Shown here one piece after another: positions 1 to 56,247 of a DNA stretch of 64,000 nucleotides. The stretch is from NCBI GenBank assembly GCA_937927775.1, contig CALBEF010000013.1:52079-116078 (forward strand), in the 5' to 3' direction. The translations under genes were made by a program, and so were the position numbers. This DNA comes from an uncultured Anaerolineae bacterium. GTDB lineage: Bacteria; Chloroflexota; Anaerolineae; J036; Brachytrichaceae. The notes under the pieces are model-generated. The model did no database searches, had not been told where the DNA came from, and was given only the letters and a program-made list of their open reading frames with translations. The first letter of the stretch is position 1, and the number at the start of each line of letters is the position of its first letter.

Positions 1-1605
1 GAGGAACAACGCGAACACAGCCAGCACGATGAGCGGAATGGTCATGCTGGGCGCAGATTCCGTGGCGTGTTCAGCGGCTGCGCTGCGCGGCTGCCCGAAG
101 AAGGTCATGGCGATCTGGCGGGTGGTGTAGAACGCCGTCAGGGTGGCCGAGAACACCAGCACCAGGAAGACGATCAGCGCCAGGGCGTTGCCTTCGCTCA
201 TCGCATGAAAGGCGTCGGCGAAGATTTCGTCTTTGCTCCAGAAGCCGGCAGTGATGAAGGGGAAACCCATCAGCGCCAGGCCGCCGATCAGGAACGTCCA
301 GAAAGTGACCGGCATTCTGTGGCGCAGGCCGCCCATGTTGCGCATGTCCTGCGGATCAAACGATTCCGGATTTTGGATTTCGGATTTTGGAGTGTGATCG
401 TCGTGGCCATGCGCTTCGTCGCTGCCATGCCCATTGTGATGGTTTGCATGGGCGTGCGCGGCGTGATGATGGCCGTGCTCGACGCCATGAATGACCGAGC
501 CGGAGCCGAGGAACAAGAGCGCCTTGAAGAAAGCGTGCGTGAGCAGGTGAAAGCCGGCGGCGATGTACGCGCCGATGCCGACCGCCGCCACCATGAAGCC
601 AAGCTGGCTGATGGTGGAGAAGGCCAGCACGCGCTTGATGTCGTACTGAGCGACCGCGATGGTCGCGCCGAGGAAAGCCGTGATTGCGCCGATTACGCCG
701 ACGATGGTGAAGGCGGCGCTGTCATGGCCGGCGAATTGAAACAGAGGAAAGAAGCGCAACAGCATGAACACGCCGGCGCTGACCATCGTCGCGGCATGGA
801 TCATCGCGCTGACCGGCGTCGGGCCTTCCATCGCGTCGGGCAACCACACATGCAGCGGGAACTGCGCGCTCTTGCCGACCGTGCCGCCGAAAATGAGAAC
901 GCCGATCATGCCGGCCGCCGAGATGCCCAGCCCCAGCACCGCCGGCGTCTCCGCCAGCAGGCGCAGCGCCTCTTCGTTGTGCAGAATGTCGAAGAAGTTG
1001 AGCGTGCCGGTCTGGCTGTACAAGTACACCATCCCCAGCAACAACAGCATGTCGCCGACGCGGGTGGTCATAAACGCCTTCACGGCCGCTTTGTACGCCG
1101 ACGGCTTGCGATAGAAGAAGCCGATCAACGAGTAGGAGCAGAAGCCCATCAACTCCCAGAAGATGAACAGGGCGAGCAGGCTGTCCGACACCACCAGACC
1201 CATCATCGAGCCGCCAAACAGGCTGAGGAAGGCAAAGAACCGGCTGTACAGCGGGTCGGACGCCATGTAGCCGGTGCTGTAAATGAAGATCAACGAACAC
1301 GTGACCGGCACCATGAACAGGAAGGTGGCGCCCAGAGGATCAACCGCAATGCCGATGCGCAGGAAGGTCTCGCCGGTCGGAATCCACGGGATGGATTGAC
1401 GGATGGGGGCTTTGCCCAAATCGGGCATGCCGATCACGTTGAAGAAGACAATGAGAGCCAGGATTGCCGACGCAAGCATCGCGCCTACGGCGATCGTCGA
1501 GCTGGTCTGACGATGCCGGTGGGTGAACAGCGCAATGACGGCAAACGCCAGCAGCGGCGGCAGCGGCGCCAGCCAGGTCAGGGTTTGAAGGAGTTCTCTG
1601 CTCAT
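1..1605 (-). CDS. nuoL: NADH-quinone oxidoreductase subunit L (N-terminal ~535 codons; gene runs off the left edge)
   Basis: Minus-strand frame from ATG 1605..1603 reads MSRELLQTLTWLAPLPPLLAF... and contains VGKSAQFPLHVWLPDAMEGPTPVSAM and DMRNMGGLRHRMPVTF. It has no stop inside the window, so it is absent from the ORF track. It follows nuoK in the conserved J-K-L order. Confidence 0.9.
   Translation of the reverse strand, partial: MSRELLQTLTWLAPLPPLLAFAVIALFTHRHRQTSSTIAVGAMLASAILALIVFFNVIGMPDLGKAPIRQSIPWIPTGETFLRIGIAVDPLGATFLFMVPVTCSLIFIYSTGYMASDPLYSRFFAFLSLFGGSMMGLVVSDSLLALFIFWELMGFCSYSLIGFFYRKPSAYKAAVKAFMTTRVGDMLLLLGMVYLYSQTGTLNFFDILHNEEALRLLAETPAVLGLGISAAGMIGVLIFGGTVGKSAQFPLHVWLPDAMEGPTPVSAMIHAATMVSAGVFMLLRFFPLFQFAGHDSAAFTIVGVIGAITAFLGATIAVAQYDIKRVLAFSTISQLGFMVAAVGIGAYIAAGFHLLTHAFFKALLFLGSGSVIHGVEHGHHHAAHAHANHHNGHGSDEAHGHDDHTPKSEIQNPESFDPQDMRNMGGLRHRMPVTFWTFLIGGLALMGFPFITAGFWSKDEIFADAFHAMSEGNALALIVFLVLVFSATLTAFYTTRQIAMTFFGQPRSAAAEHATESAPSMTIPLIVLAVFALFL
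368..390. repeat. Heptamer array, GGATTTT/CCAAAAT family (inside nuoL)
   Basis: GGATTTTGGATTTCGGATTTTGG. Translated in nuoL sense as PKSEIQNPES. Confidence 0.85.
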
Positions 1606-1626
1606 GGTGCAACTCAGCCATCGAGA

Positions 1627-1655
1627 CAATCACTCAATGACTCAATGGCTCAACC
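1627..1655. repeat. 8-mer array, TCAATGAC family (nuoK-nuoL spacer)
   Basis: CAATCACTCAATGACTCAATGGCTCAACC. Confidence 0.8.
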
Positions 1656-1656
1656 T

Positions 1657-1974
1657 CTACAGTTTCATCGAGTCGAGTTTGTCCGGGTCCACACTCTGCG
1701 TGTTGCGATACACCGAGATCATCAGCGCCAGGCCGATGGCGGCTTCGGCAGCCGCAATGACGAAAATAAACGCGGCAAACGCCAAGCCGGCGGCAGCGTT
1801 CGGGGCGACATAACGCCAGAAGGCCAGCAGATTGATGTTGACGGCATTCAGCATCAGCTCGACGCCCATCAGGATGGCGATGGCGTTTTTCCGCGCCAGC
1901 ACGCCATACAGCCCGATGCAAAAAAGAGCCGCCGAGACCAGCAAGAACCAGTAAAGCGGGATTCCATTCAGCAT
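1657..1974 (-). CDS. nuoK: NADH-quinone oxidoreductase subunit K
   Basis: 105-aa three-helix membrane protein, MLNGIPLYWFLLVSAALFCIGLYGVLARKNAIAILMGVELMLNAVNINLLAF..., typical NuoK/ND4L. Lies between nuoJ and nuoL. Confidence 0.95.
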   Translation of the reverse strand: MLNGIPLYWFLLVSAALFCIGLYGVLARKNAIAILMGVELMLNAVNINLLAFWRYVAPNAAAGLAFAAFIFVIAAAEAAIGLALMISVYRNTQSVDPDKLDSMKL

Positions 1975-2025
1975 TGCGCGACCTCAATCACCCTTGCCAA
2001 AATCCATGTCTCCTCTGGCGCAAAC

Positions 2026-2712
2026 TCAATGATGGGCAACGGACGCGGCCGGCGCTTCGGCGCTGCGCGTTTCAGCCAGCGGCAACGGCTGCTGCACCGG
2101 CCCGGCCAACATGGCTTCCTGCGCTTCTTCAGCCGCCAGTTCAGCGCGCTCTTCCATCACGTCCTTCAGCGCGCGGTCGCGCGCCACCCAGATTGCCCCG
2201 ACCATGGCCACCAGAATCAGCACTGCCGTCAGCAGAAACGCCGCGCCGTACTGATTGAAGTCTACGAACGACTGCCCGAGGCGAACCAGGTGATCGTCGG
2301 GCACAGCCGGCGCGGGCTGCCCCTCGACCACATTCGGCCAGCTCACACTGCCGAATTGCCGCTGGCCGATGGTCACGGCCACCGGGCCGAGCATGAGCGC
2401 CATGATGGCAAACACGATCACACTGACGACCAGGGCCGCCGGCCACTGCGAGTTGGCCGGCTGAGCCAGTTGCACGCCGCGCGTCAGCATGACCGCAAAG
2501 ATGATGAGGATGGATATTGCGCCGATGTAGACCAGGAATTGCGCGGCAGCAAAGAAGCCGGCGTCGAGCAGCACGTACAACCCCGTCACCCCGAAGAACG
2601 ACACAATCAGAAACAGCGCCGCGTGGAACAGGTTGCGCGCGGTCACCACCATCACGCCGCCGCCCAGGACGACAAGAGAGATCACAATGAACAGAACCTG
2701 TGAAATGGTCAT
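2026..2712 (-). CDS. nuoJ: NADH-quinone oxidoreductase subunit J
   Basis: MTISQVLFIVISLVVLGGGVMVVTARNLFHAALFLIVSFFGVTGLYVLLDAGFFAAAQFLVYIGAI... is a NuoJ/ND6 signature. The start is moved to the internal ATG at 2712 because the upstream 20 codons are encoded by the heptamer repeat array. Confidence 0.9.
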   Translation of the reverse strand: MTISQVLFIVISLVVLGGGVMVVTARNLFHAALFLIVSFFGVTGLYVLLDAGFFAAAQFLVYIGAISILIIFAVMLTRGVQLAQPANSQWPAALVVSVIVFAIMALMLGPVAVTIGQRQFGSVSWPNVVEGQPAPAVPDDHLVRLGQSFVDFNQYGAAFLLTAVLILVAMVGAIWVARDRALKDVMEERAELAAEEAQEAMLAGPVQQPLPLAETRSAEAPAASVAHH

Positions 2713-2721
2713 CTCTGCACC

Positions 2722-2795
2722 GATTGATGATTGACGATTGACGATTGACGATTGGAGCAAGCGACCTTTCAATCGTCAATTCAACAATCGACAAT
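2722..2795. repeat. Inverted pair of ATTGACG-family heptamer arrays (nuoH-nuoJ spacer)
   Basis: GATTGATGATTGACGATTGACGATTGACGATTGG (2722..2755) faces CAATCGTCAATTCAACAATCGACAAT (2770..2795). The two can pair as a long imperfect hairpin. Confidence 0.85.
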
Positions 2796-2797
2796 TT

Positions 2798-4081
2798 CTA
2801 CCTGGCCGGGGCGCCTCCGGCAAAGCCCGACACGGCGGCGCGGTTCGCTTCGCGCCGGCTTTCGATTTCCGCTTCTTCGGCCAGGCGCAGCACACGCGCC
2901 CGCCGGGCCACAATGGCCAGGCCGGACAGCAGGATCGCCACGTTAGCCACAAACAGGATGGCGGCCTGCGTCTCCGGCGTCACCAGAATGCCGCCGTTGG
3001 CCGCCTGAAGGCCGGGGCTGGTGACGAACAGCTTGGCCAGAATCATCACCGCAATGATATTGACGATCGACATTGGCACCAGCACTTTCCAGTTCAGCGA
3101 CATCAGTTGATCGACGCGCACGCGCGGCAGCGTGCCGCGCAGCCACATGAAGACGAAGAAGACCCCCGCCGTCTTGAGCGCCAGCCAGAGATAAGGCGGC
3201 AGAATCGGCCCGGCATAGCCGCCCAGGAACAGCGTGGCGAACACAATGGACACCGCCAGCGTGTTGACGTATTCGCCCAGCATGAACAGGGCGAATTTCA
3301 TGCCGCTGTATTCGACGTGGAAGCCGGCCACAATCTCCGACTCGGCTTCGAGCAGGTCAAAGGGCGAGCGGCCGGTCTCGGCTACGCCGGCGATAAAGAA
3401 CGCCAGCGCAGACAGGGGGAGATAGAGAATGAAGGGGATGCCGGGGTTGCCGTCGGCGAGTGTCTGGCGCTGCACGATATCGGCCAGCCCCATCGAGCCG
3501 GCCAGCAGGATCACCGGAATGACGTTGAGCAGCATGGGCACTTCATAACCCACCAACTGGGCCACGGTGCGAAAAGCGCCCAGCAGCGAATACTTGTTGT
3601 TGCTGCCCCACCCGGCCATCAGGATGGCAACCGTGCTGGCCGAGCCGACCGCGATGACGAAGAACACGCCGATATTGAGATTTGTGCCCACCACACCTGG
3701 CGCAAGCGGGAACACCGCGAAGGTCACGAGGGCAAACGTGGCGATGATGAGGGGAGCGGCGTTGTACACCCAGCGGTCGGCGCTGGCCGGCGTAGTGTCC
3801 TCTTTGGTGAACATCTTGATGCCATCGGCGATCGGTTGCAAGAGTCCAAACGGGCCAGCTTGATTAGGCCCCACCCGGTTCTGGATGCGCGCCACCACCT
3901 TGCGCTCGGCCCAGGTCATGCCCATGAAAACCAGAGCTACTATTGTGCACAACACCAGCGCACCCAGTCCCATCGTAATCAGATCGGCGCCCAGGCCAGG
4001 GCCTAATATGCCCTCAACCAGACCCGCCACACCATCACTGACGATCTTCAGCAGATTGTTGACCGTATCAATCACCGACAT
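2798..4081 (-). CDS. nuoH: NADH-quinone oxidoreductase subunit H (with C-terminal extension)
   Basis: WAERKVVARIQNRVGPNQAGPFGLLQPIADGIKMF and GWGSNNKYSLLGAFRTVAQLVGYEVP are NuoH/ND1 hallmarks. 427 aa. Confidence 0.95.
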   Translation of the reverse strand: MSVIDTVNNLLKIVSDGVAGLVEGILGPGLGADLITMGLGALVLCTIVALVFMGMTWAERKVVARIQNRVGPNQAGPFGLLQPIADGIKMFTKEDTTPASADRWVYNAAPLIIATFALVTFAVFPLAPGVVGTNLNIGVFFVIAVGSASTVAILMAGWGSNNKYSLLGAFRTVAQLVGYEVPMLLNVIPVILLAGSMGLADIVQRQTLADGNPGIPFILYLPLSALAFFIAGVAETGRSPFDLLEAESEIVAGFHVEYSGMKFALFMLGEYVNTLAVSIVFATLFLGGYAGPILPPYLWLALKTAGVFFVFMWLRGTLPRVRVDQLMSLNWKVLVPMSIVNIIAVMILAKLFVTSPGLQAANGGILVTPETQAAILFVANVAILLSGLAIVARRARVLRLAEEAEIESRREANRAAVSGFAGGAPAR

Positions 4082-4750: not shown

Positions 4751-6138
4751 GGAATCGGCTCAGTTGTCCAGCGCAGGCCGTCTACGGTCACGCCACCCAC
4801 CGCCAGTTCCCAATGCAAATGAGGGCCTTCGCTGCGCCCGGTGTTGCCCGACTTGCCGATCATGTCGCCGGCATTCACGATCTGGCCCACCTTGACGCCG
4901 GCCTCGGACAGGTGGCAGTACACGGTGAACACGCCTCGGCCATGATCGATGATGATCACCAGACCGCGCACCATGAATTCCTGCACGGCTGCGACACGGC
5001 CCGGCGCCGACGCATAAACCGGCGTGCCGGCCGGCGCCACAATATCCGTGCCGCTGTGATAGGTGCGCAATATCCCGCCGTTGAAGCTGCGTCGCGCGCC
5101 GAAGTACGACGCGATCCGGCCCGACGCGGGCAGCCTGAGCGGCCCTTCCCACCACTGTGTGCCAGACCACTGGCTGAGAATGGCGTCCAGTTCCACGCGT
5201 TCGTCAATGTTCACCTGTGGGTCGAGCAGCGGGATCAGGCGTCGGCTGATGGTGAGATTCTCGAAGCCGAATCCGCCGGCGGCGGTCTGGATGCGGCCAC
5301 CCACTTCGGCGGCAGCGCCGGATTCTGCAATGGCGCGCAGGGTAACCGTGTACACGCCCGGCTCCTGCAAGCCGGCCACGCCGGACAGCGCCACATATCC
5401 GCCGGCCTGCGGCACAAATCGCAACGGCCGGCCGGCCAGCGAGCCAACAATCTCCTGCAACGGGCGATTCGCGCGCACGCTTACCACAACGATGTCGCCC
5501 TGGCGCGGCACACGCGGCGTAATCTCAACACGCTCGAACGGCTCCGGCAGATTGGTAGCCACACCCTCCACCCCCTCGGGCAGTGGGATGCGCAGCAATT
5601 GTCCGACCACCAGACAGTTCGCGCATGATAGCTTGTTGGTGCGGCGCAGCAGATAGGGCGAGATGCCGTATTGCGCGCCCAGACTGGACAGGGTCTCGCC
5701 GGCCGCCACACGGTGCAGCCGAATGCGCGCCGACATGGGCGCCGGCAGCTTCAAGCGCTGGCCGGCCAGCAACAAATACGGCTGCGTCAGATTGTTGCGC
5801 TGGGCCAGGTCTGTCACGGCAAAGCCGGACTGCGCGCCAAGCGTCGCTAAGGTCTCTCCGACGGAAACAATGTGCGTCAGCGGATTGTCCGCATCCACAA
5901 TCGGCTCAGGCGTGGGAGGCGGAATCGGGGTTGCCACCACCTCGATCACCGGCGTCTCTTCGATGTCAGGCGGCTGATCGGCAGGCTGTTCAGGCGAGAC
6001 TGGCGTCGCTTCGGCCGGCGGCTGATTATCAGGAGGGGACTGCTCCTGGGCCACACTCGTCGCAACGCCCGCAATCTGAAGCGCGATGCTGACAATGAGG
6101 AGGGCCAGAACAACGATGCCAGGGCGAAGTCTGCTCAT
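4747..6138 (-). CDS. Secreted LysM-domain M23 family metallopeptidase
   Basis: N-terminal signal/TM segment and a Pro-rich linker. Two clear LysM repeats (HIVSVGETLATLGAQSGF..., HRVAAGETLSSLGAQYGISPYLL...). C-terminal M23 motifs HSGTDIVAPAGTPVYA and GNTGRSEGPHLHWEL. Confidence 0.85.
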   Translation of the reverse strand: MSRLRPGIVVLALLIVSIALQIAGVATSVAQEQSPPDNQPPAEATPVSPEQPADQPPDIEETPVIEVVATPIPPPTPEPIVDADNPLTHIVSVGETLATLGAQSGFAVTDLAQRNNLTQPYLLLAGQRLKLPAPMSARIRLHRVAAGETLSSLGAQYGISPYLLRRTNKLSCANCLVVGQLLRIPLPEGVEGVATNLPEPFERVEITPRVPRQGDIVVVSVRANRPLQEIVGSLAGRPLRFVPQAGGYVALSGVAGLQEPGVYTVTLRAIAESGAAAEVGGRIQTAAGGFGFENLTISRRLIPLLDPQVNIDERVELDAILSQWSGTQWWEGPLRLPASGRIASYFGARRSFNGGILRTYHSGTDIVAPAGTPVYASAPGRVAAVQEFMVRGLVIIIDHGRGVFTVYCHLSEAGVKVGQIVNAGDMIGKSGNTGRSEGPHLHWELAVGGVTVDGLRWTTEPIP

Positions 6139-6938
6139 GAAGGCTGTATTGTACGCTTCCAGTAACGTTCACCGCCCGTTCGAGCAATGTACTCTCTGAC
6201 ATGCTCCGGCATCGCCGCCGCGCCGCCCGGCATCTCGCCGAACAGCGCAAACAACTGCGAGCGATAGCAGGCAATGGCAGCGATGCGCAAATCGACCTCG
6301 GCTTCTATCAGATGGATCAGCACTGGGCGCCAGGCCGAGCCGGCCTGCTCCAGATAGGGGGTCAGCGCGCCGGCGTCCCTGCCGGCATACGGATAGTCCT
6401 CGTAATAGGCGACGCGCGCCGGATCGCACATCTGCTCGACAGCCCGCCGGACAATCACATGATCGACATGTCCGCCGATGCTCAAAGGGCAGTACACCTG
6501 CGCATCGCCGCCGGCGACAAGCAGCGCCTGCCGCACCGCGTCGATCACGCTCGGATAGAAGCGCTCCCAGTCATGGGGATGGACATGTCCGCCCATGAAC
6601 TGCTTGCCTTCATACAGGGGCCGGCCGGCGTCATCGTAGCGATAGATGGCGTCGAGCAGGCCCAGATGCAGGGCTTCGGCGCCGAGTAAATTGGCCGCCT
6701 GCCTGTCCTCGACCCGGCGCTGGTGATAGGGCCGCTCGCCAAGCTGCCACTGCCAGTGCTCGTGTTCGGCTGCCGCCGACAGCGCAAACGGGCCTTCATA
6801 GTCCGCCGTGCAGAAGGTCGCCATGATGACGCGCTGGCCCTGGCGCGCCAGCCGGCCGGCCAGCCCCGCGCAGGACAAGCCGATGTCATCCAGGTGTGGC
6901 GCGAGAAAGAGGTGAACCATCCAGCTTCGCGCTGTCAA
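6135..6938 (-). CDS. PIG-L/LmbE family deacetylase
   Basis: N-terminus MVHLFLAPHLDDIGLSCAGL (PIG-L P-H-x-D-D motif), later HVDH. 4-nt overlap with the downstream M23 gene. The start could be 6938 or 6920. Confidence 0.75.
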   Translation of the reverse strand: MTARSWMVHLFLAPHLDDIGLSCAGLAGRLARQGQRVIMATFCTADYEGPFALSAAAEHEHWQWQLGERPYHQRRVEDRQAANLLGAEALHLGLLDAIYRYDDAGRPLYEGKQFMGGHVHPHDWERFYPSVIDAVRQALLVAGGDAQVYCPLSIGGHVDHVIVRRAVEQMCDPARVAYYEDYPYAGRDAGALTPYLEQAGSAWRPVLIHLIEAEVDLRIAAIACYRSQLFALFGEMPGGAAAMPEHVREYIARTGGERYWKRTIQPS

Positions 6939-7696
6939 TATCGAATGACGACCAGCGTCCCGATTGTGGCCCAGTTGTACAGCGTGACAGCGTCTTTGGT
7001 GTTGAGCACCACGCAGCCAAAGGACCCCGGTGCGCCGACGCGCCAGCGCACCGGGCGGCCATTTTTAGTCATCGGCATGGCGTGAATGCCGTTCTCGATG
7101 CGACCCACATCGTAGATGCCCAGCCAGTTTGGCATCCGCAACTGCCATACGTTCGACCAGGCCTCATCCATTTTGGACTTGATGCGGAACGTGCCGGCTT
7201 TGGTGGCGCGGTCCGGCGTGCCCGTGCTGACGAGAAATGTCCACAGCAACGTGCCGTTCTCGTACACCCACATGCGTTGCCTGCTCAGGCTGACATAGAT
7301 GGCCTTGCCGCGCGTCCTGGCAGCCGGCGCGCCGGCTGCGGTGGATGGCGCGGCGGCAGCCGATGCGCCCGCGCGGCCGGGCGAATCCGGCTCTTTGGGC
7401 AGATACAGCCTCTGGCCGGCATAGATGGCGCGGGCGTTAGACAGATTGTTGGCGCGCATGATGCCGGCGATGCTCACATCGAAACGGGCCGAGATGCCAG
7501 AGAGCGTGTCCCCTTTGCGAACGGTGTACCAGAAGCCACCCGCGCTGGCCGGCGCAAACGCGCTCACCGGCGCATCCACCGCCTGGGCCGGGACAGTTGC
7601 CAGCGCGGCAAAACTGCTCAATCCGACGACAGCCGTCAACACAAGTCTCGACACAAAGCGCGTCCACAACATCGGCAGCAGGCGATTTCTCGGCAT
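6935..7696 (-). CDS. LysM-domain L,D-transpeptidase (YkuD family)
   Basis: Signal peptide, LysM (YTVRKGDTLSGISARFDVSIAGIMRANNL), YkuD catalytic region ...GIHAMP...GAPGSFGCVVL. Start taken at MPRNRLLPML (ATG 7696); the ORF-track extension to 8023 has no coding-like features. Confidence 0.8.
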   Translation of the reverse strand: MPRNRLLPMLWTRFVSRLVLTAVVGLSSFAALATVPAQAVDAPVSAFAPASAGGFWYTVRKGDTLSGISARFDVSIAGIMRANNLSNARAIYAGQRLYLPKEPDSPGRAGASAAAAPSTAAGAPAARTRGKAIYVSLSRQRMWVYENGTLLWTFLVSTGTPDRATKAGTFRIKSKMDEAWSNVWQLRMPNWLGIYDVGRIENGIHAMPMTKNGRPVRWRVGAPGSFGCVVLNTKDAVTLYNWATIGTLVVIRY

Positions 7697-9300: not shown

Positions 9301-10248
9301 ATGGCCGGGGTGGTTGCCATGGATTACGAGAAGATCGTCCTCGTCACGCGCAAAACGCGACTGGAGGGCCTGATCGAGCGGTTCAACACCCGCTCGCAGG
9401 CCCGTTTCTACATCGAGCACAGCGGCGGCGACTTCAGCGTGTACGAGCGCGAGCACGACACCTATCACGCCGCGCTGTCGGCGTTGCGCGCGTCGCTCGA
9501 GCCGTTGCTGAACGTGCAGATGATCGAGCGCACCTATCTGCCGGCCTTTCTGTTCGCCGAGACGGATATGGTGGTGACGATCGGCGTCGATGGGCTGGTG
9601 GCGAATACCGCCAAGTATCTGAGCAGCCAGCCTCTCATCGCCGTCAACCCCGACCCGGCCCACATCGACGGCGTGCTGCTGCCATTCACGGTGCGCGAGG
9701 CGGCTGCGGCAGTGCGCCGTGTGATGAAGGGGCAGCACAACCTTCGCGCCGTAAGCATGGCCGAGGCGCGCTTAAACGACGGCCAGCGATTGCTGGCGTT
9801 CAACGATCTGTTCATCGGCGCGCGTACACACGTCTCGGCGCGTTACACGATTCACATTGGCGACCGCCGGGAAGCGCAGTCGTCCAGCGGTGTCATCGTC
9901 TCCACCGGCATCGGCGCAACCGGCTGGCTGAGCAGCCTGTTTAACATGGCGAATGGGCTGTGGGCTGCGTTCGGGCAACCAGCGTCTGCGCTGCAACCGC
10001 CGGCGCTGTCGCCAGAGGCGGACTGGCTGGCGTTCGTGGTGCGCGAACCCTTCGTCAGCAAGACTTCGCAGGCCGGCATCGTGGGAGGCGTAATCGAGCG
10101 CGACGCTCCCCTGCGCATCGAAGCGCACATGCCGGAAGGAGGGGTCATCTTCAGCGACGGCGTGGAATCGGACTTTCTGGCGTTCAACACCGGCAGCGCG
10201 GCGACGATTTGCCTCGCAGATCGTCGGGCATCGCTCGTGATCAAATAG
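9301..10248 (+). CDS. Atypical ATP-NAD kinase (PpnK) fold protein
   Basis: NAD-kinase-like motifs VVTIGVDGLVANTAKYL (GDG-type), NDLFIGARTHVSARY and SSGVIVSTGIGATGWLSS. Starts 4 nt after the SPFH stop. The start may be 9301 or 9319. Confidence 0.7.
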   Translation: MAGVVAMDYEKIVLVTRKTRLEGLIERFNTRSQARFYIEHSGGDFSVYEREHDTYHAALSALRASLEPLLNVQMIERTYLPAFLFAETDMVVTIGVDGLVANTAKYLSSQPLIAVNPDPAHIDGVLLPFTVREAAAAVRRVMKGQHNLRAVSMAEARLNDGQRLLAFNDLFIGARTHVSARYTIHIGDRREAQSSSGVIVSTGIGATGWLSSLFNMANGLWAAFGQPASALQPPALSPEADWLAFVVREPFVSKTSQAGIVGGVIERDAPLRIEAHMPEGGVIFSDGVESDFLAFNTGSAATICLADRRASLVIK

Positions 10249-10690: not shown

Positions 10691-10783
10691 AACCTGAGCG
10701 CATGAGACGTTGAGAGCGTGAGCGCATGAGAAACTGAGAACGCGCGAACCTGACAACCTTAACAACCTTAAGAACCTTAAACA
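10691..10783. repeat. Composite short-repeat region (clpS / yabN-like divergent spacer)
   Basis: GAGCGCATGAG-type units followed by AACCTTAAC AACCTTAAG AACCTTAAA (9-mer family, 10755..10783). Confidence 0.75.
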
Positions 10784-10788: not shown

Positions 10789-12393
10789 ATGACTCACATG
10801 CTCACCATTCTCGGCCTCGGCCCCGGCGACGCCACCCTGCTCACCCGCGAAGCATGGGAGGTGTTGACTCATGCCCGCGTTGTGCATCTGCGCACGCGCA
10901 AGCATCCCACAATCAGCGGCCTGCCTTCGCACCTGACCCTGCGCGACTTCGACGCGCTGTACGACGCCGGCGACGACTTTGCGCAGGTCTACACGCGCAT
11001 TGTGGACGAGATCATCGCCGCCGCGCAGAGCGAGGACGTGGTGTACGCAGTCCCCGGCCATCCGCTGGTCGGCGAGGCGACTGTGCCCATGCTGCTTCAG
11101 CGCGCGCGCGACCTCGGCATCGAGACCCGCCTGGTCGCCGGCCTCAGCTTCATCGAGCCGGTGCTGGAGAGTCTGGTCAGTAGTCAGAAGTCAGAAGACG
11201 AGGCGCGCGACACGCAATACGCACTACGCACTACGCAACACGCAATACGCAACACGCAGCTTGCTGCCGACAATCCAAAATCCAAAATCCAAAATCCAAA
11301 ATCATTTGATCCGCTGGACGGCCTGCAACTCTGTGATGCGCTCGAACTGGCGGCGCTGCATCATCCGCCGTTGAACCCCGACCGGCCGGCGCTGATTGCC
11401 CAGCTCTACTCGCGCGCCATCGCATCGGATGTCAAACTGACGCTGATGAACCAGTACCCGCCGGCGCATCCCGTTGCTGTGGTGAACGGCGGCGCGCAGG
11501 ACGCAGATGAAAACGCTGTCGCCTGGGTAGCCCTTCACCGGCTCGATCACAGCGACCGCTTCGACCATCTGACCACGCTCTATGTGCCGGCCATGCCGAT
11601 AACGGCCAGCTTCGAGGGATTACAGGAGACCATCGCGCACCTGCGCGCGCCGGAGGGTTGCCCATGGGATCGCGCGCAAACCCATGAGTCGCTGCGCAGC
11701 GCGCTGCTGGAAGAGGTATACGAAGTGCTGACCGCGCTCGACGAGGGCGACCTGAGCGCCCTGCGCGAGGAAATGGGCGACCTGTTGATGAACCTCATCA
11801 TGCAGGCGCAGATTGCGACCGAAGCCGAAGAGTTCCGCATGGTGGATGTGATCGCCGAGATCGACGCCAAACTGAAACGCCGGCATCCGCATGTGTTCGG
11901 CGAGGTGGTTGTCAACGGCGTCGGCGAAGTGCTGAGCAACTGGAACGCCATCAAGCAACAGGAGCATGTCGAGAAGGGCGCCGCGCGCACGTCGGCCCTG
12001 GACGGCATTCCGCCGGCGTTGCCGGCGCTGGCGCAGGCGCAGAAGATGGCGCACAAGGCCGAGCGCGCCGGCTTTCAGTGGAGCAAGGACGCGCGCCAGG
12101 CCGCGCAGTTGCGGCTGGCGAAAGTCCACGAGGAGATTGATGAGATCGTTGCGGCCGGCGACAACGACCACCGCCGGGAGGAAATCGGCGACCTGCTGTT
12201 CACGCTGGCCGACCTGGCGGACGGGTTTGACATCGACGCCGAAACCGCCCTGCGCAAGGCGAACCTTAAATTCGCCCGGCGATTCCGCGCCATGGAAACG
12301 CTGATTCGTGAACGCGACCTGGATATGCAGGCCATGTCACTGACCGAACTGGAAGCGGTGTGGGCGGAAGTAAAACGAGCCGAGGCCGGCTAA
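10789..12393 (+). CDS. YabN-like fusion: tetrapyrrole (SAM) methylase domain + tandem MazG NTP pyrophosphohydrolase domains
   Basis: N-terminus LTILGLGPGDATLLT...VYAVPGHPLVGE (TP_methylase). C-terminus CPWDRAQTHESLRSALLEEVYEV...EEMGDLL and a second EEIGDLLFTLADLA MazG repeat. The interdomain linker carries three repeat arrays. Confidence 0.85.
   Translation: MTHMLTILGLGPGDATLLTREAWEVLTHARVVHLRTRKHPTISGLPSHLTLRDFDALYDAGDDFAQVYTRIVDEIIAAAQSEDVVYAVPGHPLVGEATVPMLLQRARDLGIETRLVAGLSFIEPVLESLVSSQKSEDEARDTQYALRTTQHAIRNTQLAADNPKSKIQNPKSFDPLDGLQLCDALELAALHHPPLNPDRPALIAQLYSRAIASDVKLTLMNQYPPAHPVAVVNGGAQDADENAVAWVALHRLDHSDRFDHLTTLYVPAMPITASFEGLQETIAHLRAPEGCPWDRAQTHESLRSALLEEVYEVLTALDEGDLSALREEMGDLLMNLIMQAQIATEAEEFRMVDVIAEIDAKLKRRHPHVFGEVVVNGVGEVLSNWNAIKQQEHVEKGAARTSALDGIPPALPALAQAQKMAHKAERAGFQWSKDARQAAQLRLAKVHEEIDEIVAAGDNDHRREEIGDLLFTLADLADGFDIDAETALRKANLKFARRFRAMETLIRERDLDMQAMSLTELEAVWAEVKRAEAG
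11176..11303. repeat. Three concatenated heptamer arrays inside the YabN-like interdomain linker
   Basis: GTCAGTA GTCAGAA GTCAGAA (11176..11197). ACGCAAT/ACGCACT x7 (11211..11259). CCAAAAT x4 (11271..11303). All in frame (..SSQKSEDE..DTQYALRTTQHAIRNTQ..NPKSKIQNPKS..). Confidence 0.9.
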
Positions 12394-13780: not shown

Positions 13781-13833
13781 AGTTCACCACCCTTGCTGTG
13801 TTCGTGATTATACGGTCAGGCGCGGGCGGCCTC

Positions 13834-35405: not shown

Positions 35406-35408
35406 TTT

Positions 35409-35487: not shown

Positions 35488-35490
35488 CTT

Positions 35491-37438: not shown

Positions 37439-37440
37439 AG

Positions 37441-38538: not shown

Positions 38539-38550
38539 CTCACACTCCTG

Positions 38551-38605
38551 GATTGAGTCATTGGGCGATTGAGCCATTGAGTCATTGAGTCATTGACCAA
38601 ATGGC
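38551..38605. repeat. 8-mer array, GTCATTGA family (aroH / DAHP synthase spacer)
   Basis: GATTGAGTCATTGGGCGATTGAGCCATTGAGTCATTGAGTCATTGACCAAATGGC. Confidence 0.85.
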
Positions 38606-38633
38606 AAAATCACACAATGGCGCAATTCGTCAA

Positions 38634-39956: not shown

Positions 39957-39977
39957 GGCAAGCCGCCGGGCTTGCCC
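39956..39977. terminator. Hairpin between convergent pseudouridine synthase and S8 protease genes
   Basis: GGGCAAGCC-GCCG-GGCTTGCCC, a 9-bp perfect stem starting at the stop codon of the + gene. No U-tract. Confidence 0.45.
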
Positions 39978-40008
39978 TACTACAAACAAGCCGCCGGCCC
40001 TGCCGAGT

Positions 40009-48096: not shown

Positions 48097-48099
48097 GAA

Positions 48100-48753: not shown

Positions 48754-48768
48754 CGGGGCGCGCCGCAC

Positions 48769-48859
48769 GTAGTGCGTGTTGCGTAGTGCGTGTTGCGTAG
48801 TGCGTATTACGTAGTGCGTATTACGTATTGCGTATTGCGTATTGCGCATTACGTATTGG
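48769..48859. repeat. 13-unit heptamer array (GTAGTGC / GTGTTGC / GTATTAC / GTATTGC)
   Basis: 91 nt = 13 x 7, between the response-regulator stop (48753) and the convergent HEPN gene. The last units encode the HEPN C-terminus and stop. Confidence 0.9.
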
Positions 48860-49271
48860 GGCGGGACAGGATTTCCTGCGCAGCTTGCAGAAAGAAATCG
48901 GCGTGCTGGATGGCTGCTTCAGCGTCTGCCAGGAAATAGTTCTGAGCCGGTGTCAAGTCCGGCAGGCTGTCCGGGTAACGTGTGGGGATGTAAAAACGGT
49001 CGAGAATCGCTGCGCACTGAAGCCATTCAGACCGGCGCTCAAAAAGCTCTGGATGCGGGAAGTCCATGACCAGACGCTGAATCGAATGCCCCCATCCGTC
49101 CAGGCCGTACAGCCTCCAGATCGCCTTCATCGCCTTCTCTGCGCTTTGTTGCGCGTTGAAGCAGGCATGAGCGTGCATGGCATTGTCACGCAAGGCGCGC
49201 GCTGCGCGCAGGTCGTCCTGCGCGGTGGAAAGCCAGCGCGCGGCCTCGTGATGGTCTTTACTCTGACTCAT
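48849..49271 (-). CDS. HEPN domain protein (toxin-like partner of MNT)
   Basis: 140 aa. ...ACFNAQQSAEKAMKAI...HSI..L...DRFYIPTRYPD is a HEPN-type pattern. Overlaps the upstream MNT gene by 14 nt. Confidence 0.78.
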   Translation of the reverse strand: MSQSKDHHEAARWLSTAQDDLRAARALRDNAMHAHACFNAQQSAEKAMKAIWRLYGLDGWGHSIQRLVMDFPHPELFERRSEWLQCAAILDRFYIPTRYPDSLPDLTPAQNYFLADAEAAIQHADFFLQAAQEILSRPNT

Positions 49272-49599
49272 AGATCACACGTCCTTCGCGCAGAATCGTG
49301 GCTATAAAAGGACGATGCCGCATCGCCTCCAGTTCATCCGGCGTGTAAATCAGCGCGTCGATCTCTCGATGGGGCCGAACGGCCAGCATCAGCTCGGTGA
49401 GCAGGCCCTCGTAACGGTCAAAGAATCGTTTGTCGGTGTTCTGGATCAGCAGCAGATCCAAATCGCTGCGCGGAGACGGCTCGCCGCGCGCAAACGACCC
49501 AAACACAATCGCCTTTTGCACGTTGTGCCGGATCAGGACAGGCGTGACCTGATCGCGGATGCGCTGAAGGTCAGGGGCGAGATCGATCGTTGCGCTCAT
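49258..49599 (-). CDS. Minimal nucleotidyltransferase (MNT, antitoxin-like partner of HEPN)
   Basis: IVFGSFARGEPSPRSDLDLLL carries the GS-x10-DxD NTase motif. Start at MSATIDL (ATG 49599). Confidence 0.8.
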   Translation of the reverse strand: MSATIDLAPDLQRIRDQVTPVLIRHNVQKAIVFGSFARGEPSPRSDLDLLLIQNTDKRFFDRYEGLLTELMLAVRPHREIDALIYTPDELEAMRHRPFIATILREGRVIYESE

Positions 49600-49656
49600 G
49601 GCGATTGCCTCAACCAGTATAGCGGAAGACGCCCGCGCTCGCGCTACAATGCTTCC

Positions 49657-52600
49657 ATGCCGACTGCCAATAGTTCCCTCCAACAGGCGCTCGCCCGACA
49701 CGTTTCCGGCGAAGTGCGCTTTGACGACGCGATGCGCGTGCTCTACAGCACTGACGCCAGCAATTATCAGGTGTGGCCGCAGGGCGTGGTGTTGCCCAGG
49801 ACTGCCGACGATGTCATTGCGGCCGTCAACCTATGCGCCGAACATGGCGCGCCGATCATCCCGCGCGGCGGGGGCAGCGGGCTGTGCGGCCAGGCCATCG
49901 GCCCCGGCGTCATCCTCGATCTCTCCAAATACATGAATCAGGCGCTGGAGGTGGATGCGGCAGGCCGGCGCGCGCATGTTCAGCCCGGCATGGTGCTGCA
50001 ACAGTTGAACAAGCAACTCGCGCCCATGAAGTTGCAGTTCGGCCCCGATCCGGCCAGCGGCGAGCGAGCGGTCATCGGCGGCATCATCGGCACAAACGCC
50101 ACCGGCGCGCACTCCATCCGCCACGGCATGACTGCCGACCATGTGATTGCCATGCGCTGCGTGCTGGCCGATGGCACGCTGGTCGAGTTTGGCCCGCGCG
50201 AGAACGGCCCACAGGGCAAACTCGAACAGGCCATCGCCGACATCGTGCGCCGCCATGAGGCCGTTATCCGCCGCGATTTTCCGCAGGTGTGGCGCCGGGC
50301 CAGCGGCTACAACGTGGACTTTATCGCTGAAATGCTGGCCTGGGATCCGACCCATCCAGAGGCCGCGCTGCTCGACGCCAGCCGCAACCGGCAGTCGCTG
50401 AACTACCAGTCGCATCTCGACATGATCAGCCGGTTCAACCTGTCGCCGCTGATTGTGGGATCAGAGGGCACGCTGGCCGTGGTGCTGGACGCCACGCTGA
50501 AGCTGATGCCGAAGCCGGCGCGCACCGGCCTGGTGGTGTGCGCGTTCAACTCGCTGTCCGATGCGATGGACGCTACGCCGGCCATGTTGACCAGCGATCC
50601 CTCCGCGCTGGAGCTGATGGATGGCTTGATGGCGCGCCTGGCGCGCGGCCTGCCGGAGCAGGCGCGCAAGATGACCTGGCTGAGCGGCGAGCCGGACGCC
50701 GTGTTGATCGTGGAGTTCGACGGCGAAACAGAAAATGAAGTGAAGGCCGGCTTCGAGCGGCTGAAGCGCGTGCTGGCGCAGGAGCGCATCCCCTGCTCGG
50801 TCGCCGAGTTGATCGACCCGCAGGCGCAGGCCGACGTGTGGGCCGTGCGCAAGATCGGGCTGGGCATTCTGCTGAGCATCCGCAGCGACCACAAGCCGAT
50901 TTCGGTGATCGAAGATGTGGCGGTGCCGGTGGCGCGGCTGGGCGAATATGTGCGCCGGATGCGCGAGGTGTTCGCCCGCCATAAAACGGATGGCGCGTTC
51001 TACGCCCACGCCAGCGCCGGCGTGCTGCATGTGCGTCCGCTGGTCAACCTCAAGACGCTGGAAGGGCTGCGCGCCATGGAGGACATCGGCCTGAGCGCGC
51101 TGGCGCTGTGCCGCGAGATGGGCGGCGCGCTCAGCGGCGAGCACGGCGACGGCTACGAGCGCACGCGCTGGAACGAGGCGCTGTACGGCAAAGCGGTGTA
51201 TCAGGCGTTTTGCGAGATCAAGGACGCCTTCGACCCGCGCGGTCTGTTGAATCCCGGCAAGAAAGTGCGCGGCGAAGCAATGGAAGACTTCATGCGCATC
51301 GGGCCATGGCTGAAGATGAAGCCGTATGCAAGCGTGTTCACCTATCAGCAGGACGGCTCGTTTGCCGGCCTGGTGGAGCAGTGCAACGGCAACGGCATCT
51401 GTCGCAAATTAGACGGCGGCGTGATGTGCCCGTCGTACCGCGCCACGCTCGATGAAACCCACAGCACGCGCGGGCGGGCCAACCTGCTGCGCCATTTCAT
51501 CACCGATCGCGCGACGTGGAAACGAAACGACCGCCAGCCGGCAGAAAAGGCCGGCGCTCAATCGTCAATCGCTCAATCGTCAATCGCTCAATCGTCAATC
51601 GTCAATCCTTCTGACGTTCCCGTTATTTCGATGGACGACGTGAAATCCGCGCTGTCGTTGTGTCTGTCCTGCAAAGCCTGCCACACCGAATGCCCGTCCA
51701 GCGTGGACATGTCGAAGCTCAAGAGCGACTTTCTGGAGCACTACTACGCCGAGCGCGGCAAGCCGTTGCGCGCGTGGATGTTCGGCCACTTTGCCAATCT
51801 CAGCGCGCTGGCCGCGCCGTTTGCGCCGCTGGTCAACCGGCTGTTTGCGTTGCCGCCGGCCAAGTGGGCGATGCGCCGTATCGGGATCACCGATCAGCGT
51901 CCGTTCCCCCATTTCGCCTCGCAGACTTTCAAGGCGTGGTGGCGGCGTCAGGAGACAGGAGACAGGAGTCAGGAGTCAGACGAGTCGCCAATCCCCAATC
52001 CCCAATCCAAAATCAAAAATCCAAAATCGGTGGTGTTGTTTGCCGACACATTCGCCAACTACAACCACCCGCATGTGGCGCAGCGGGCGGTGGCATTGCT
52101 GGAGGCAGCCGGCTATTGCGTGATTGTGCCGGACTGCAAGTGCTGCGGGCGCACGCTGGTGTCGCAGGGCCAGCCGGGCGAGGTTGTGCCGCTCGCCAGA
52201 CACAACATCAGGACGCTGGCGCCGTTGGCGAAGCAGGGCCTGCCGATTCTGGGTCTGGAGCCGAGCTGCATCGCCATGTTCAAGGATGACTATCTGGACA
52301 TGCTGCCCGGCGATGACACTACAGCCGTGGCCGACGCCTTCATGGGCGTCGAGGACTTTCTGGCGCGCGAGGCAGCCGGCGGCGAGCGCGGCTTCAGCCT
52401 GAGCCGGCGCTTCCCGAACAACACCGATGTGCTGGTTCACGGCCACTGCCACCAGAAGGCCGGCTGGGGCACGCAGGGCATGAAGCAGGCCATGACAATG
52501 GCCGGCTATCGCGTGAAAGAGGTCGATTCGACGTGCTGCGGCATGGCCGGCGCGTTCGGCTATGAAGCCGAGCATTTTGAGGTGTCGCGCAAGGTCGGCG

Positions 52601-55188: not shown

Positions 55189-55563
55189 GTGTCGGAGTAC
55201 TGGTCGATCCTGGTGCTGTTTGCGCTGTCCGTCGCGCTGGCGATCCTCATCGTGCTCATTTCCATCCTGTTCGGCCCCCGACGCCGCGCGAAGCTGGCTC
55301 GCAAGCAGGCGCCCTACGAAAGCGGCATGATGGCGATCGGCGCAGCGCAGCGCCGGCTGCCGGTGCGCTTTTATCTCATTGCCGTCTTGTTTATCCTGTT
55401 CGATGTCGAGGTGATCTTTCTGTTCTCGCTCGCCGCGGCATTGCGCGATCTGGGCTGGACAGGATTCTTTGCCCTGTTCGTATTTATAGTCGTGCTGCTC
55501 CTGGGCGACGTGTGGTTGTGGAAAAAGGGCGCCTTCGAGTGGGAGACGATGGACAAACAGTGA
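55189..55563 (+). CDS. nuoA: NADH-quinone oxidoreductase subunit A (copy 2)
   Basis: ...KQAPYESGMMAIGAAQRRLPVRFYLIAVLFILFDVEVIFLF... is the NuoA/ND3 motif. GTG start. Confidence 0.9.
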   Translation: MSEYWSILVLFALSVALAILIVLISILFGPRRRAKLARKQAPYESGMMAIGAAQRRLPVRFYLIAVLFILFDVEVIFLFSLAAALRDLGWTGFFALFVFIVVLLLGDVWLWKKGAFEWETMDKQ

Positions 55564-55571
55564 GTTCGCAG

Positions 55572-55717
55572 GGTTGGTAAGGTTCGTAAGGTTGGTAAGG
55601 TTCATAAGGTTCATCAGGTTGGCAAGGTTCATTCAAGACGGGACAAGAGCGCGACTTTGCGAACTCCGCAAACCTTACGAACCTTAAGAACTTTACAAAC
55701 CTTAAGAACCCTAAAGG
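55572..55717. repeat. Inverted pair of 9-mer arrays (GGTTSRTAA / TTASGAACC) in the nuoA-nuoB spacer
   Basis: Arm 1 at 55572..55634 is (GGTTGGTAA GGTTCGTAA GGTTGGTAA GGTTCATAA GGTTCATCA GGTTGGCAA GGTTCATTC). Arm 2 at 55668..55717 is (..AACCTTACG AACCTTAAG AACTTTACA AACCTTAAG AACCC..). The arms are reverse complements of the same unit. Confidence 0.85.
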
Positions 55718-55724
55718 CAAGAGC

Positions 55725-56207
55725 ATGGGTCTGGAACAGAAACTTGGCGATATGGGGGTGGTGACGACCTCGCTGGAAAAGGCAGTCGGCTGGGCGCGTT
55801 CAAACGCGATCTGGCCGATGTTGTTTGGCCTGGCGTGTTGCGCCATCGAGATGATGAGCACGCAGGCCAGCCGCTATGACCTGTCGCGCTTCGGCATGGA
55901 GTTGATGCGGGCCAGCCCGCGCCAGTCGGATTTGATGATTGTGGCCGGCCGCGTCAGCCGCAAGATGGCCCCGGTGCTGCGCACGCTGTACGACCAGATG
56001 CCGGATCCGAAATGGGTGATCGCCATGGGCGACTGCGCATCCTGCGGGGGCGTGTTCAATAACTACGCCATCGTGCAGGGCGTGGACGAGATCGTGCCCG
56101 TGGATGTGTACGTGGCCGGTTGCCCGCCCCGGCCCGAAACACTCATCGAAGGCATCCTCAAGCTCCAGGACAAGATCAAGCAGGAGCCGCTGAAGAAGTG
56201 GCAGTGA
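55725..56207 (+). CDS. nuoB: NADH-quinone oxidoreductase subunit B
   Basis: [15 protein letters not shown]...GDCASCGG...VAGCPPRPE are the N2 cluster ligands. Confidence 0.95.
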
Positions 56208-56208
56208 C

Positions 56209-56247
56209 GATTTTGGATTTTGGATTTTGGATTTGCGATTGCAGATT
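56209..56247. repeat. GGATTTT-family array (nuoB-nuoC spacer)
   Basis: GATTTTGGATTTTGGATTTTGGATTTGCGATTGCAGATT. This non-coding copy has GGATTTT on the transcribed sense strand, the opposite of all coding copies. Confidence 0.85.

Follow-up and report, generated by a model that had tools for sequence, protein, structure and literature searches.

The window analysed in this work, a 64-kb stretch of contig CALBEF010000013.1 (GC content 0.57-0.66), contains genes for complex I and an aro operon and, between and inside these and other genes, a large number of short tandem repeat arrays with units of 7, 8 or 9 nt, which are the subject of this report. The genes were assigned by Pfam scans and include, besides the loci listed in Table 1, cell-wall enzyme genes, metH, a secreted S8 protease, queG, two-component system genes and an FAD-oxidase/Fe-S protein gene. 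As judged by protein similarity, the lineage is a Thermoflexales-like Chloroflexota, in keeping with the view of a first-pass annotation, made by a model from the letters alone, that the gene content is not cyanobacterial. The best AroA relative among one-genome-per-species GTDB contigs is a Thermoflexales metagenome-assembled genome (MAG; 78% identity), the nearest AroC proteins (85-91% identical) belong to Anaerolineae or Thermoflexales MAGs, and the closest NuoB (96-97%) and AroC (91%) both come from other species; exact look-ups of the window's proteins gave no match in the public collections.

Tandem Repeats Finder (TRF; period 7-9, at least 3 copies, overlapping rows collapsed) returned 26 arrays in the window, at essentially all the positions named in the first-pass annotation, which had counted at least 23 by eye; 50 dinucleotide-preserving shuffles averaged 1.0 array and never exceeded 4. 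This density of 4.1 per 10 kb compares with 0.77 across 86 loci of other genomes (1.33 Mb), only seven of which reach 3 per 10 kb or more. Clustering of the units over all rotations and both strands, with one mismatch allowed, placed 20 of the 26 arrays in five families, confirming that a small set of units recurs: AAAATCC/GGATTTT, including GGATTGT and CCAATCC (7 arrays), TCAATCG/CGATTGA (4), the 8-mer GTCATTGA/ATTGAGYC (4), the 9-mer AACCTTANN (3) and ACGCAAT/CGTATTG (2). Arrays at 53893 (CGTCGGCG) and 10695 (TGAGAGCA) stand outside the recurring families. The arrays range across 0.4-56 kb of the window, with zero arrays at 20-29 kb, and have a GC content of 0.44 against 0.636 for the window as a whole. 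Most of the 7-, 8- and 9-nt units have an ATTG/CAAT or GATT/AATC core, with AATC/GATT present in 12 of the 26 units where 1.9 were expected and CAAT/ATTG in 13, an excess that makes the 7- and 8-nt families look like variations on a single core. GANTC methylation sites, G-quadruplexes, A-tract curvature, iterons and DnaA-type boxes were considered from the unit sequences alone, and no such motif is common to all families.

The re-use of units at unrelated loci, also pointed out on first reading, exceeds chance by a wide margin, with an identical unit in 18 array pairs more than 300 nt apart, where 2000 simulations averaged 0.11 and never gave more than 3. The sharing extends to non-periodic unit variants: TTGGGCGATTGAGYCATTG is present at three spacers, the 21-mer TTGGGCGATTGAGTCATTGAG has six matches at three or fewer mismatches in four spacers (zero expected), and ACGCAAT, ACGCACT and ACGCAAC units are mixed alike, in opposite orientation, at 11206-11258 and 48768-48858. 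Shared variants of this kind point to copying between loci and not to independent birth or slippage, and the sequences support a shared origin of arrays at different loci. The contrary explanation, in which each array was born in situ by slippage of a local 7-, 8- or 9-mer and the loci are unrelated, draws on heptamers being the commonest tandem-repeat period in many prokaryotes, for which polymerase slippage was put forward as the cause (Mrazek 2007), and on relatives whose array borders hold native unit-like sequences (GTCATCC in aroA, ATTGACG in aroB). It is made very improbable by the identical-unit pairs, by the identical combinations of non-periodic variants at several loci, and by two features of the relatives described below, namely the same families in sisters and in more distant genomes and the different families found at one site in different genomes.

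Array sequence occupies five of the six non-overlapping aro spacers and four of the five nuo spacers (9 of 11; arrays were read on the sense strand of the host or downstream gene, and spacers missed by TRF were inspected too), close to the "almost every" intercistronic spacer of the first-pass annotation. Most of the spacers have ATTG-type units on the 5' side and CAAT-type units on the 3' side, that is, inverted arrays, and these inverted pairs commonly fold into imperfect hairpins of 20-50 bp (Table 1), an organisation that the first-pass annotation had not described. The folding z score is below -3 in five spacers, while the chorismate mutase (CM)/DAHPS2 and nuoH/nuoJ spacers are weaker (z about -2). 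Folding energies on the sense and antisense strands are symmetric in 6 of 9 elements, with a preference for one strand only at 48768-48858, 19824-19903 and 1627-1653. At aroA, nuoJ and nuoL the arrays adjoin start codons without a clear Shine-Dalgarno sequence. Structured spacers are not all derived from arrays, since the GC-rich inverted repeat GGGCAAGCCGCCGGGCTTGCCC at 39957-40008, between the convergent rluA-like and S8 protease genes, is array-free and looks like an ordinary terminator. The window has no tRNA genes and no Rfam matches at gathering score.

Table 1. Gene blocks, in-gene arrays and spacer arrays of the window, with RNA folding energies (dG, folding free energy in kcal/mol) where given; DAHPS, 3-deoxy-D-arabino-heptulosonate 7-phosphate (DAHP) synthase; subscripts after units are copy numbers
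Feature	Position	Strand	Content	dG; z
nuoL, K, J, H	1-4081	-	Pfam-assigned gene block
TP-methylase/MazG fusion	10789-12393	+	Pfam-assigned gene
aro operon	28869-39002	-	CM, two DAHP synthases, tyrA, aroA, aroE, C1 peptidase (pepC), aroC, aroK-aroB
nuoA, B, C, D, Fic gene, nuoE, F	55189-61274	+	gene block
In nuoL	362-391	-	(AAAATCC)~4 in frame, encodes PKSEIQNPES within a 19-aa loop insertion relative to the NuoL of a relative
In TP-methylase/MazG gene	11176-11303	+	in-frame composite (GTCAGAA)3, (ACGCAAT)6.7, (AATCCAA)4.6
In aroB	29340-29367	-	(ATTGACG)4 tract; in-frame TGA avoided by a variant unit (TGG)
In aroC, hypervariable loop	31170-31199	-	9-mer (GGTNAGGTT)3.3, encodes GQVGQVGKV
In aroA	34727-34745	-	(GTCAATC)2.7, encodes NRQSSIV
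In S8 protease, N-terminal region	43952-43997	-	(CAAAATC)6.6 in frame
In S8 protease, just after signal peptide	44395-44430	-	(CACAATC)5.1 in frame
In FAD-oxidase/Fe-S gene	51555-51607	+	(TCAATCG)6.9 in frame, 15-nt higher-order unit
In FAD-oxidase/Fe-S gene	51949-52028	+	in-frame composite (CAGGAGA)4.4, (CCAATCC)3, (AATCCAA)3.6
nuoK/nuoL spacer	1627-1653	-	filled by 8-mer ATTGAGYC array
nuoH/nuoJ spacer	2721-2795	-	(TCAATCG)4.9 at 2721-2754, degenerate inverted CGATTGA-type arm 5'; hairpin	-29.1; -2.2
5' of TP-methylase/MazG gene	10695-10780	+	degenerate TGAGMGCR 8-mers, then (AACCTTAAC)3
Biotin-lipoyl protein gene/M23 peptidase gene spacer	19824-19903	-	ATTG-type then CAAT-type arms; hairpin	-39.9; -4.3 (19815-19910)
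pepC/aroC spacer	31690-31765	-	8-mer ATTGAGYC arm and CAAT-type arm; orthologous in L001, L332, L333	-36.6; -6.1
tyrA/aroA spacer	35404-35485	-	(ATTGRGYC)3.5 then (CAATCNN)6.5 up to the aroA ATG; hairpin	-26.7; -3.5
DAHPS1/tyrA spacer	36332-36377	-	(TCAATCG)6, single-orientation, unstructured; orthologous in L330, L332, L333
DAHPS2/DAHPS1 spacer	37460-37509	-	short 8-mer ATTG/CAAT inverted pair
CM/DAHPS2 spacer	38551-38633	-	degenerate ATTG-type arm and (CAATGACT)5.6 arm, then Shine-Dalgarno
Convergent response-regulator/HEPN gene spacer	48768-48858	+	(CGTAKTG)13; + strand RNA folds via G-U pairs	-66.2 (- strand -26.0); -6.2
nuoA/nuoB spacer	55564-55714	+	(AAGGTTCNT)7.4, loop, (AACCTTANG)4.9; long hairpin	-60.7; -7.7
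nuoB/nuoC spacer	56208-56247	+	(GGATTTT)~4, single-orientation, unstructured

As the first-pass annotation had estimated, about half of the arrays lie inside conserved genes: 13 of the 26 TRF arrays fall within the open reading frames (ORFs) of nuoL, TP-methylase/MazG, aroB, aroC, the S8 protease and the FAD-oxidase/Fe-S protein, all of them in frame, and an additional array of 2.7 copies, also in frame, was found in aroA. The concatenation of different families was confirmed as well, at 11176-11303, 35404-35485 and 51949-52028. Conserved domains in one frame flank the composites of the TP-methylase/MazG gene (128 nt) and the FAD-oxidase gene (80 nt), and the PDB alignments of both proteins stop short of the array regions. 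Both S8 protease arrays come after the signal peptide, and the segment between them has an in-frame GC content at third codon positions of 0.84. The aroB tract has the same length as in four relatives, whose sequence at this position is a degenerate 7-periodic tract, and the window AroA is longer than that of the relative L333 by 7 aa (21 nt, exactly 3 units) and longer than that of L001 by 14 aa, in a variable loop. A co-inserted 3' flank of the nuoL and MazG-gene arrays (TTTGATCCGC.GGAC) was also considered and rejected, as it consists of native codons (F/T-D-P-x-D) that are also present in an array-free NuoL.

The reading direction of the in-gene arrays is constrained. Every AAAATCC-type array inside a gene encodes a hydrophilic QNPKSKI-type peptide and none the alternative DFGFWIL. 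In metagenome contigs with a GC content of at least 0.55, TCAATCG arrays among the matches listed were 14 sense and 0 antisense inside predicted genes, and 13 sense and 13 antisense upstream of starts; the antisense reading of TCAATCG contains TGA, the intragenic bias is explained by a coding filter, and the intergenic orientation shows no RNA-strand preference. The array in aroB, the only one of antisense type, has TGG in place of the in-frame TGA. In-gene arrays survive only where the frame is kept, the orientation is stop-free and hydrophilic-coding, and the site is a variable surface loop. The gain or loss of one 7- or 8-nt unit would shift the frame, and the literature on Xanthomonas suggests a role of this type for heptamers, in which slippage at contingency loci switches genes on or off (phase variation). 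In the present case the arrays keep the frame in each of the five genomes examined, their hosts (nuoL, aroA, aroB, aroC) are essential housekeeping genes, and no surface or variable-antigen gene is associated with them except one secreted protease, which makes phase variation an extremely improbable explanation.

A comparison of orthologous loci, as advised by the first-pass annotation, was made with four syntenic sister genomes, L001, L330 (GCA_034431495.1), L332 and L333, having 89-95% amino-acid identity to the window over CM, DAHPS1, pepC and AroC and 65-81% identity at four-fold-degenerate sites. The AAAATCC, AATCGTC, AATGACTC, AACCTT-type 9-mer and AATACGC families are common to the window and the sisters, and the aro and nuo loci of the relatives carry arrays too. 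Orthologous arrays of similar length are found in the CM/DAHPS2, DAHPS1/tyrA and pepC/aroC spacers, and the presence of arrays at the same spacers and protein loops in four sisters with this divergence at four-fold sites indicates that the arrays are old and fairly stable. An assembly or sequencing artefact, which the first-pass annotation had kept in mind and which the source, probably a MAG, and the lack of exact protein matches might suggest, has next to no probability, given the same families and orthologous arrays in five independent assemblies, the occurrence of arrays in at least 120 metagenome contigs (see below) and the in-gene arrays that keep the frame with conserved domains on either side.

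Family replacement is seen at other orthologous sites. In three relatives, the DAHPS2/DAHPS1 spacer has, in place of the 50-nt 8-mer hairpin of the window, a GGATTTT/AAAATCC hairpin that is 93-220 nt long, and the 5' half of the tyrA/aroA spacer has nine copies of GGTGAGT in L001 versus (ATTGRGYC)3.5 in the window. The AroC loop that follows GGYVVSIG.VS ranges from 0 to about 50 residues in 15 orthologues and is filled by translated arrays of differing families; one example is a 9-mer pair translated in both arms (VDKVDKVD...NLTNLPNFTN), another, from more distant lineages, a CGATTGA/TCAATCG pair (FVNRQSSIVN). Similarly, distant relatives have TCAATCG-encoded IVNRQ or FVNRQSSIVN in the same loops (AroA of L002 at 5934-7292, 62-64% identity; AroC of P0175 and P0196, 78-79%), so that array-derived peptides recur in the same loops across deep divergence. 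Among relatives compared at the nuo locus, the nuoA/nuoB spacer has only 2 nt in L081 (GCA_025354985.1), whose NuoB is 96% identical, and a further relative has an AGAGATT/CAATCTC hairpin between nuoB and nuoC. None of the compared loci offers an alignable empty site, so no target-site duplication can be defined. In L330, the pepC/aroC hairpin is replaced (9437-10004) by two overlapping ORFs of 89 and 77 aa with no Pfam hit and an unrelated perfect hairpin (ATTCACATTCCCGGAG...CTCCGGGAATGTGAA-like).

The TCAATCG unit is not limited to this lineage, three tandem copies being present in at least 120 metagenome contigs; those among the matches listed, which also define the counts for these contigs that follow, have GC contents of 0.36-0.71 (5th-95th percentile) and are rich in arrays (5.2 per 10 kb including the seeded array). 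In IMG/VR, 36 stretches match the TCAATCG pattern, while two control heptamers of equal composition match 12 and 2; a generic period-7 AATC pattern was discarded as a search probe, being too unspecific (at least 119 heterogeneous matches in viral contigs). Unrelated array-rich loci with families of their own were found in Armatimonadota, Caldilineaceae and Kiritimatiellia. Inverted pairing of arrays is a general feature: of 312 arrays in the TCAATCG-carrying contigs, 143 have an inverted array of the same unit within 150 nt, as do 10 of 29 in the Thermoflexales-like relatives and 14 of 43 in the array-rich loci of other phyla, whereas controls with a reversed or complemented unit gave 0-5 partners. 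The pairs have a preferred order, a CGATTGA arm followed by a TCAATCG arm in 44 cases versus the opposite order in 11 (median arm 32 nt, median loop 23 nt), and the hairpins of the window have the same order. As each order of arms is its own reverse complement, this polarity is not a strand effect. In two of the metagenome contigs (L215 and L217), some paired TCAATCG arrays enclose a central GC-rich perfect stem-loop, which makes a terminator-like core with arms of heptamer arrays, and L217 also has a higher-order repeat of 21-22 nt, (GATTGACGATTGACGATTGCGG)n.

These properties bear on three further explanations. In the first, which is rather unlikely, the arrays would be multivalent binding sites for a sequence-specific protein or the ribosome (S1, Csp, a CsrA-like protein or a DNA-binding regulator) and form a regulatory network. 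The arrays adjoining start codons that lack a clear Shine-Dalgarno sequence, the conservation of spacer arrays at least as high as that of synonymous sites, the polarity bias, the recurrence of one unit across very different genomes and the precedent of proposals made for the TAACTGA repeats of Beggiatoaceae and the heptamer repeats of Nostoc all agree with it; the equal numbers of sense and antisense TCAATCG arrays upstream of starts do not, and neither do the placement of half of the arrays in coding loops of unrelated housekeeping genes, the swapping of families at orthologous sites without visible consequence, and the number of families (at least five, with three period lengths), each of which would need its own binder.

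In the second, the inverted-array hairpins would be non-autonomous mobile elements, similar to miniature inverted-repeat transposable elements (MITEs) or to repetitive extragenic palindromic sequences (REPs) and bacterial interspersed mosaic elements (BIMEs), either moved by a REP-associated tyrosine transposase (RAYT) or IS200-like transposase whose gene lies elsewhere or laid down at breaks by a templated polymerase or reverse transcriptase. The general palindromic architecture would fit this, as would the preferred polarity, comparable to that of terminal inverted repeats, the same type of hairpin in the nuoA/nuoB spacer and inside aroC of L001 and L333, the patchy distribution among relatives, and the description of the Chloroflexus heptamer satellites as "probably transposed" in a published account. 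Against movement of this kind stand the lack of a transposase or reverse transcriptase in the window and in the inspected neighbourhoods, the missing clean empty site, the many single-orientation arrays and the stable orthologous positions across sisters, and this explanation is considered unlikely. In the third, which is distinctly unlikely, inverted tandem-repeat hairpins would be a distinct and widespread class of element, installed, homogenised and exchanged among families by a dedicated sequence-specific machinery (for example a recombinase, nuclease or templated polymerase that recognises repeats or hairpins). The elements, with arms of about 4-5 units, loops of about 23 nt and the preferred GATTG...CAATC polarity, occur in contigs of such different GC content and in several phyla; they would be tolerated even when they interrupt essential genes, with the AroC loop and operon spacers as favoured landing sites and not relics.

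The explanation proposed here, to which about an even chance is given, is that the arrays belong to dispersed families of long simple-sequence repeats, of the same type as the short tandemly repeated repetitive (STRR) sequences, long-lived in the Thermoflexales-like lineage, which would mainly be self-perpetuating, tolerated DNA with a possible secondary use and no dedicated enzyme. Replication slippage would expand, contract and re-homogenise the arrays, homology-guided copying between arrays, by ectopic gene conversion or template switching, would spread or swap families, possibly nucleated at native sequences that resemble a unit, and inverted partners would arise by strand-switching. Selection would then filter the outcomes, with intercistronic spacers and protein loops tolerating arrays, and some use of the spacer hairpins as mRNA structures, like that of REPs, may have been acquired later, in processing, stability or the uncoupling of cistrons. 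Changes of length by slippage and persistence where harmless are well supported by the patterns of frame, stop codons and loops, and, by analogy with REP elements, the spacer hairpins may plausibly act in the processing or stability of mRNA. The first-pass annotation had favoured an active generating or spreading mechanism over independent slippage; the spreading part, as copying between loci, agrees with the shared non-periodic variants, whereas current activity is not shown, the arrays being old and fairly stable in the four sisters. The co-occurring enzyme proposed there, such as a reverse transcriptase or nuclease, did not appear in the window, and the Pfam scans of the window found no reverse transcriptase, transposase or other candidate. 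A dedicated enzyme is not indicated; the patchy distribution and the polarity bias would be compatible with one.

Several observations weigh against this explanation. Copying between loci is deduced from shared variants and family replacement, with no copying step directly observed, and the alignments of AroA and AroB fit both a sequence gained or retained by the window and one lost or decayed in the relatives. The 44:11 polarity and the presence of one heptamer across contigs of GC 0.36-0.71 are not predicted by neutral slippage and hint at a sequence-specific factor. Density is patchy, with 0 arrays in 13.6 kb of L081 and 0 in 20 kb of L088 (NuoB identity 93%), which would also be the expected outcome of an activity restricted to certain lineages. 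The conservation of the spacers, with identities of 0.85-0.93 (DAHPS1/tyrA) and 0.75-0.92 (pepC/aroC) that equal or exceed the 0.65-0.81 of four-fold-degenerate sites, is only suggestive, because low-complexity repeats align flexibly and may inflate the spacer values. Regarding the secondary use, most hairpins fold equally on both strands, making roles at the DNA and RNA levels inseparable, covariation in the pepC/aroC hairpin is weak (one compensatory pair among 29, four sequences), and the consensus structure of CM/DAHPS2 is poor (four sequences).

The lineage offers a compact comparative system, with five syntenic genomes, orthologous arrays that include translated ones in essential enzymes, and family replacement at fixed sites, and the hairpin architecture with its polarity bias also extends to environmental contigs. 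Should a specific factor lie behind the polarity bias and the family turnover, phylogenetic profiling could find it here; if not, the arrays are a clear illustration of selfish microsatellites filtered by coding and operon constraints. For the annotation of such genomes, arrays inflate ORF calls and yield spurious N-terminal extensions and apparent insertions.

Other features of the window concern its gene order. The complex I genes are split, with nuoA-F (without nuoG and nuoI) on the + strand at one end and nuoH, J, K and L on the - strand at the other, while the relatives L087 and L088 have a single contiguous nuoA-L operon. A Fic/DOC-family gene (58030-59499, +) interrupts the nuo operon between nuoD and nuoE, which follow each other directly in L087 and L088, and the surrounding block at 56-60 kb has the lowest GC content of the window (0.574). 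Two OB-fold/DUF4131 genes lie 3' of nuoF in the window and one in L088. The aro operon includes two tandem DAHP synthase paralogues with ferredoxin-like N-domains (36407-38577) and, between aroE and aroC, a C1-like (bleomycin-hydrolase-type) peptidase (31768-33126, -) found at the same place in all four syntenic relatives. A defence/toxin-antitoxin cluster at 21061-25061 encodes an EAD7-domain protein, an Mrr restriction endonuclease, DUF2690, a DinB-family protein and an AbiEii toxin with an upstream partner ORF; a separate HEPN and nucleotidyltransferase pair lies at 48849-49701, and two adjacent paralogous genes for Big_7 and SH3_3 domain proteins at 12407-15135 (-). The cumulative GC skew has its minimum near 36-40 kb and the genes, mostly on the minus strand before, lie mostly on the plus strand from near 46 kb on; the region at about 36-46 kb may hold an origin or terminus of replication or the boundary of a rearrangement, and no dnaA was seen in the window.

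Among known systems, the STRR sequences of heterocystous cyanobacteria are heptanucleotide arrays of few unit families at many dispersed loci, frequent in intergenic or intercistronic regions of operons, with CCCCAGT, TTGGTCA and CAACAGT as classical units; some of them reportedly form stem-loops in nif intergenic regions. The arrays of the window are similar in being tandem heptamers of few families, dispersed and frequent in operon spacers, and the STRR analogy drawn in the first-pass annotation is a fair one. They differ in the phylum, in having 8- and 9-nt families beside the 7-mers, in being AT-rich in a GC-rich genome and in lying in frame inside genes in half of the cases, and the three classical units have no tandem dimers in the window. 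CRISPR arrays, already set aside on first reading, have repeats of 23-55 nt with unique spacers, whereas the periods here are 7-9 nt without spacers, and no Cas domains were found in the Pfam scans of the window.

The REP and BIME sequences of enterobacteria are imperfect palindromes that give hairpins in mRNA and lie between cistrons or in 3' regions of operons; they offer the nearest analogy for a possible action of the spacer hairpins. Five spacers of the window have an extragenic palindromic hairpin of this kind, yet half of the arrays lie within genes and several have a single orientation. REPs also differ in having arms that are not tandem repeats, a strictly extragenic location and linkage to RAYT, none of which was found here; Pfam scans of the window found no RAYT. 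As regards MITEs, inverted arms were observed, and the nuoA/nuoB element is absent from L081.

Tandem repeats of similar length have been surveyed in other prokaryotes. Some prokaryotic genomes are rich in 5-11-nt tandem repeats, with heptamers dominant and mostly intergenic (Mrazek, Guo and Shah 2007), and the SPADE survey of 7006 genomes ranked tandem heptamers first in abundance among the periodic DNA of prokaryotic intergenic regions and gave no indication of what they do. The arrays described here agree with these long simple sequence repeats in unit length, in exceeding chance expectation and in their recurring units; both surveys give abundance per genome, without unit families that show inverted pairing, orthologous persistence or family replacement. 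A search of the literature on tandem repeats in Thermoflexus gave nothing relevant. In the same phylum, Chloroflexus aurantiacus has a (GATAGRA)n satellite family scattered through the genome and interpreted as transposed (Subirana and Messeguer 2019), likewise a dispersed heptamer. It belongs to the class Chloroflexia and differs in its unit and in being a single family, and the accessible part of that paper does not describe an in-gene or hairpin organisation.

TAACTGA direct repeats occur at well over a hundred sites in marine Beggiatoaceae, cyanobacteria and Bacteroidetes, often directly upstream of starts without a Shine-Dalgarno sequence and some within ORFs, with a patchy phylogenetic distribution (MacGregor 2015). 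They are almost always forward, with one inverted case, whereas inverted pairs are common here and the intergenic orientation is unbiased; TAACTGA is absent from the window. Heptamer repeats of Nostoc near starts or promoters affect reporter expression. Geobacter metallireducens has four-copy GGACCGG arrays at 49 sites and five-copy MTYCTGA arrays in pairs, within and between genes, and thus resembles the window in its multicopy elements of 4-5 tandem heptamers, genic and intergenic, some drawn as palindromic pairs; its main family differs in being GC-rich, fixed at about 4 copies and annotated as putative regulatory sites. Dispersed heptamer families are therefore already described in cyanobacteria, Chloroflexus aurantiacus, Geobacter, Beggiatoaceae and the long-repeat surveys, well beyond the cyanobacterial case known to the first-pass annotation, and the hairpin organisation and the translated in-gene arrays are described here more fully than in the cited papers.

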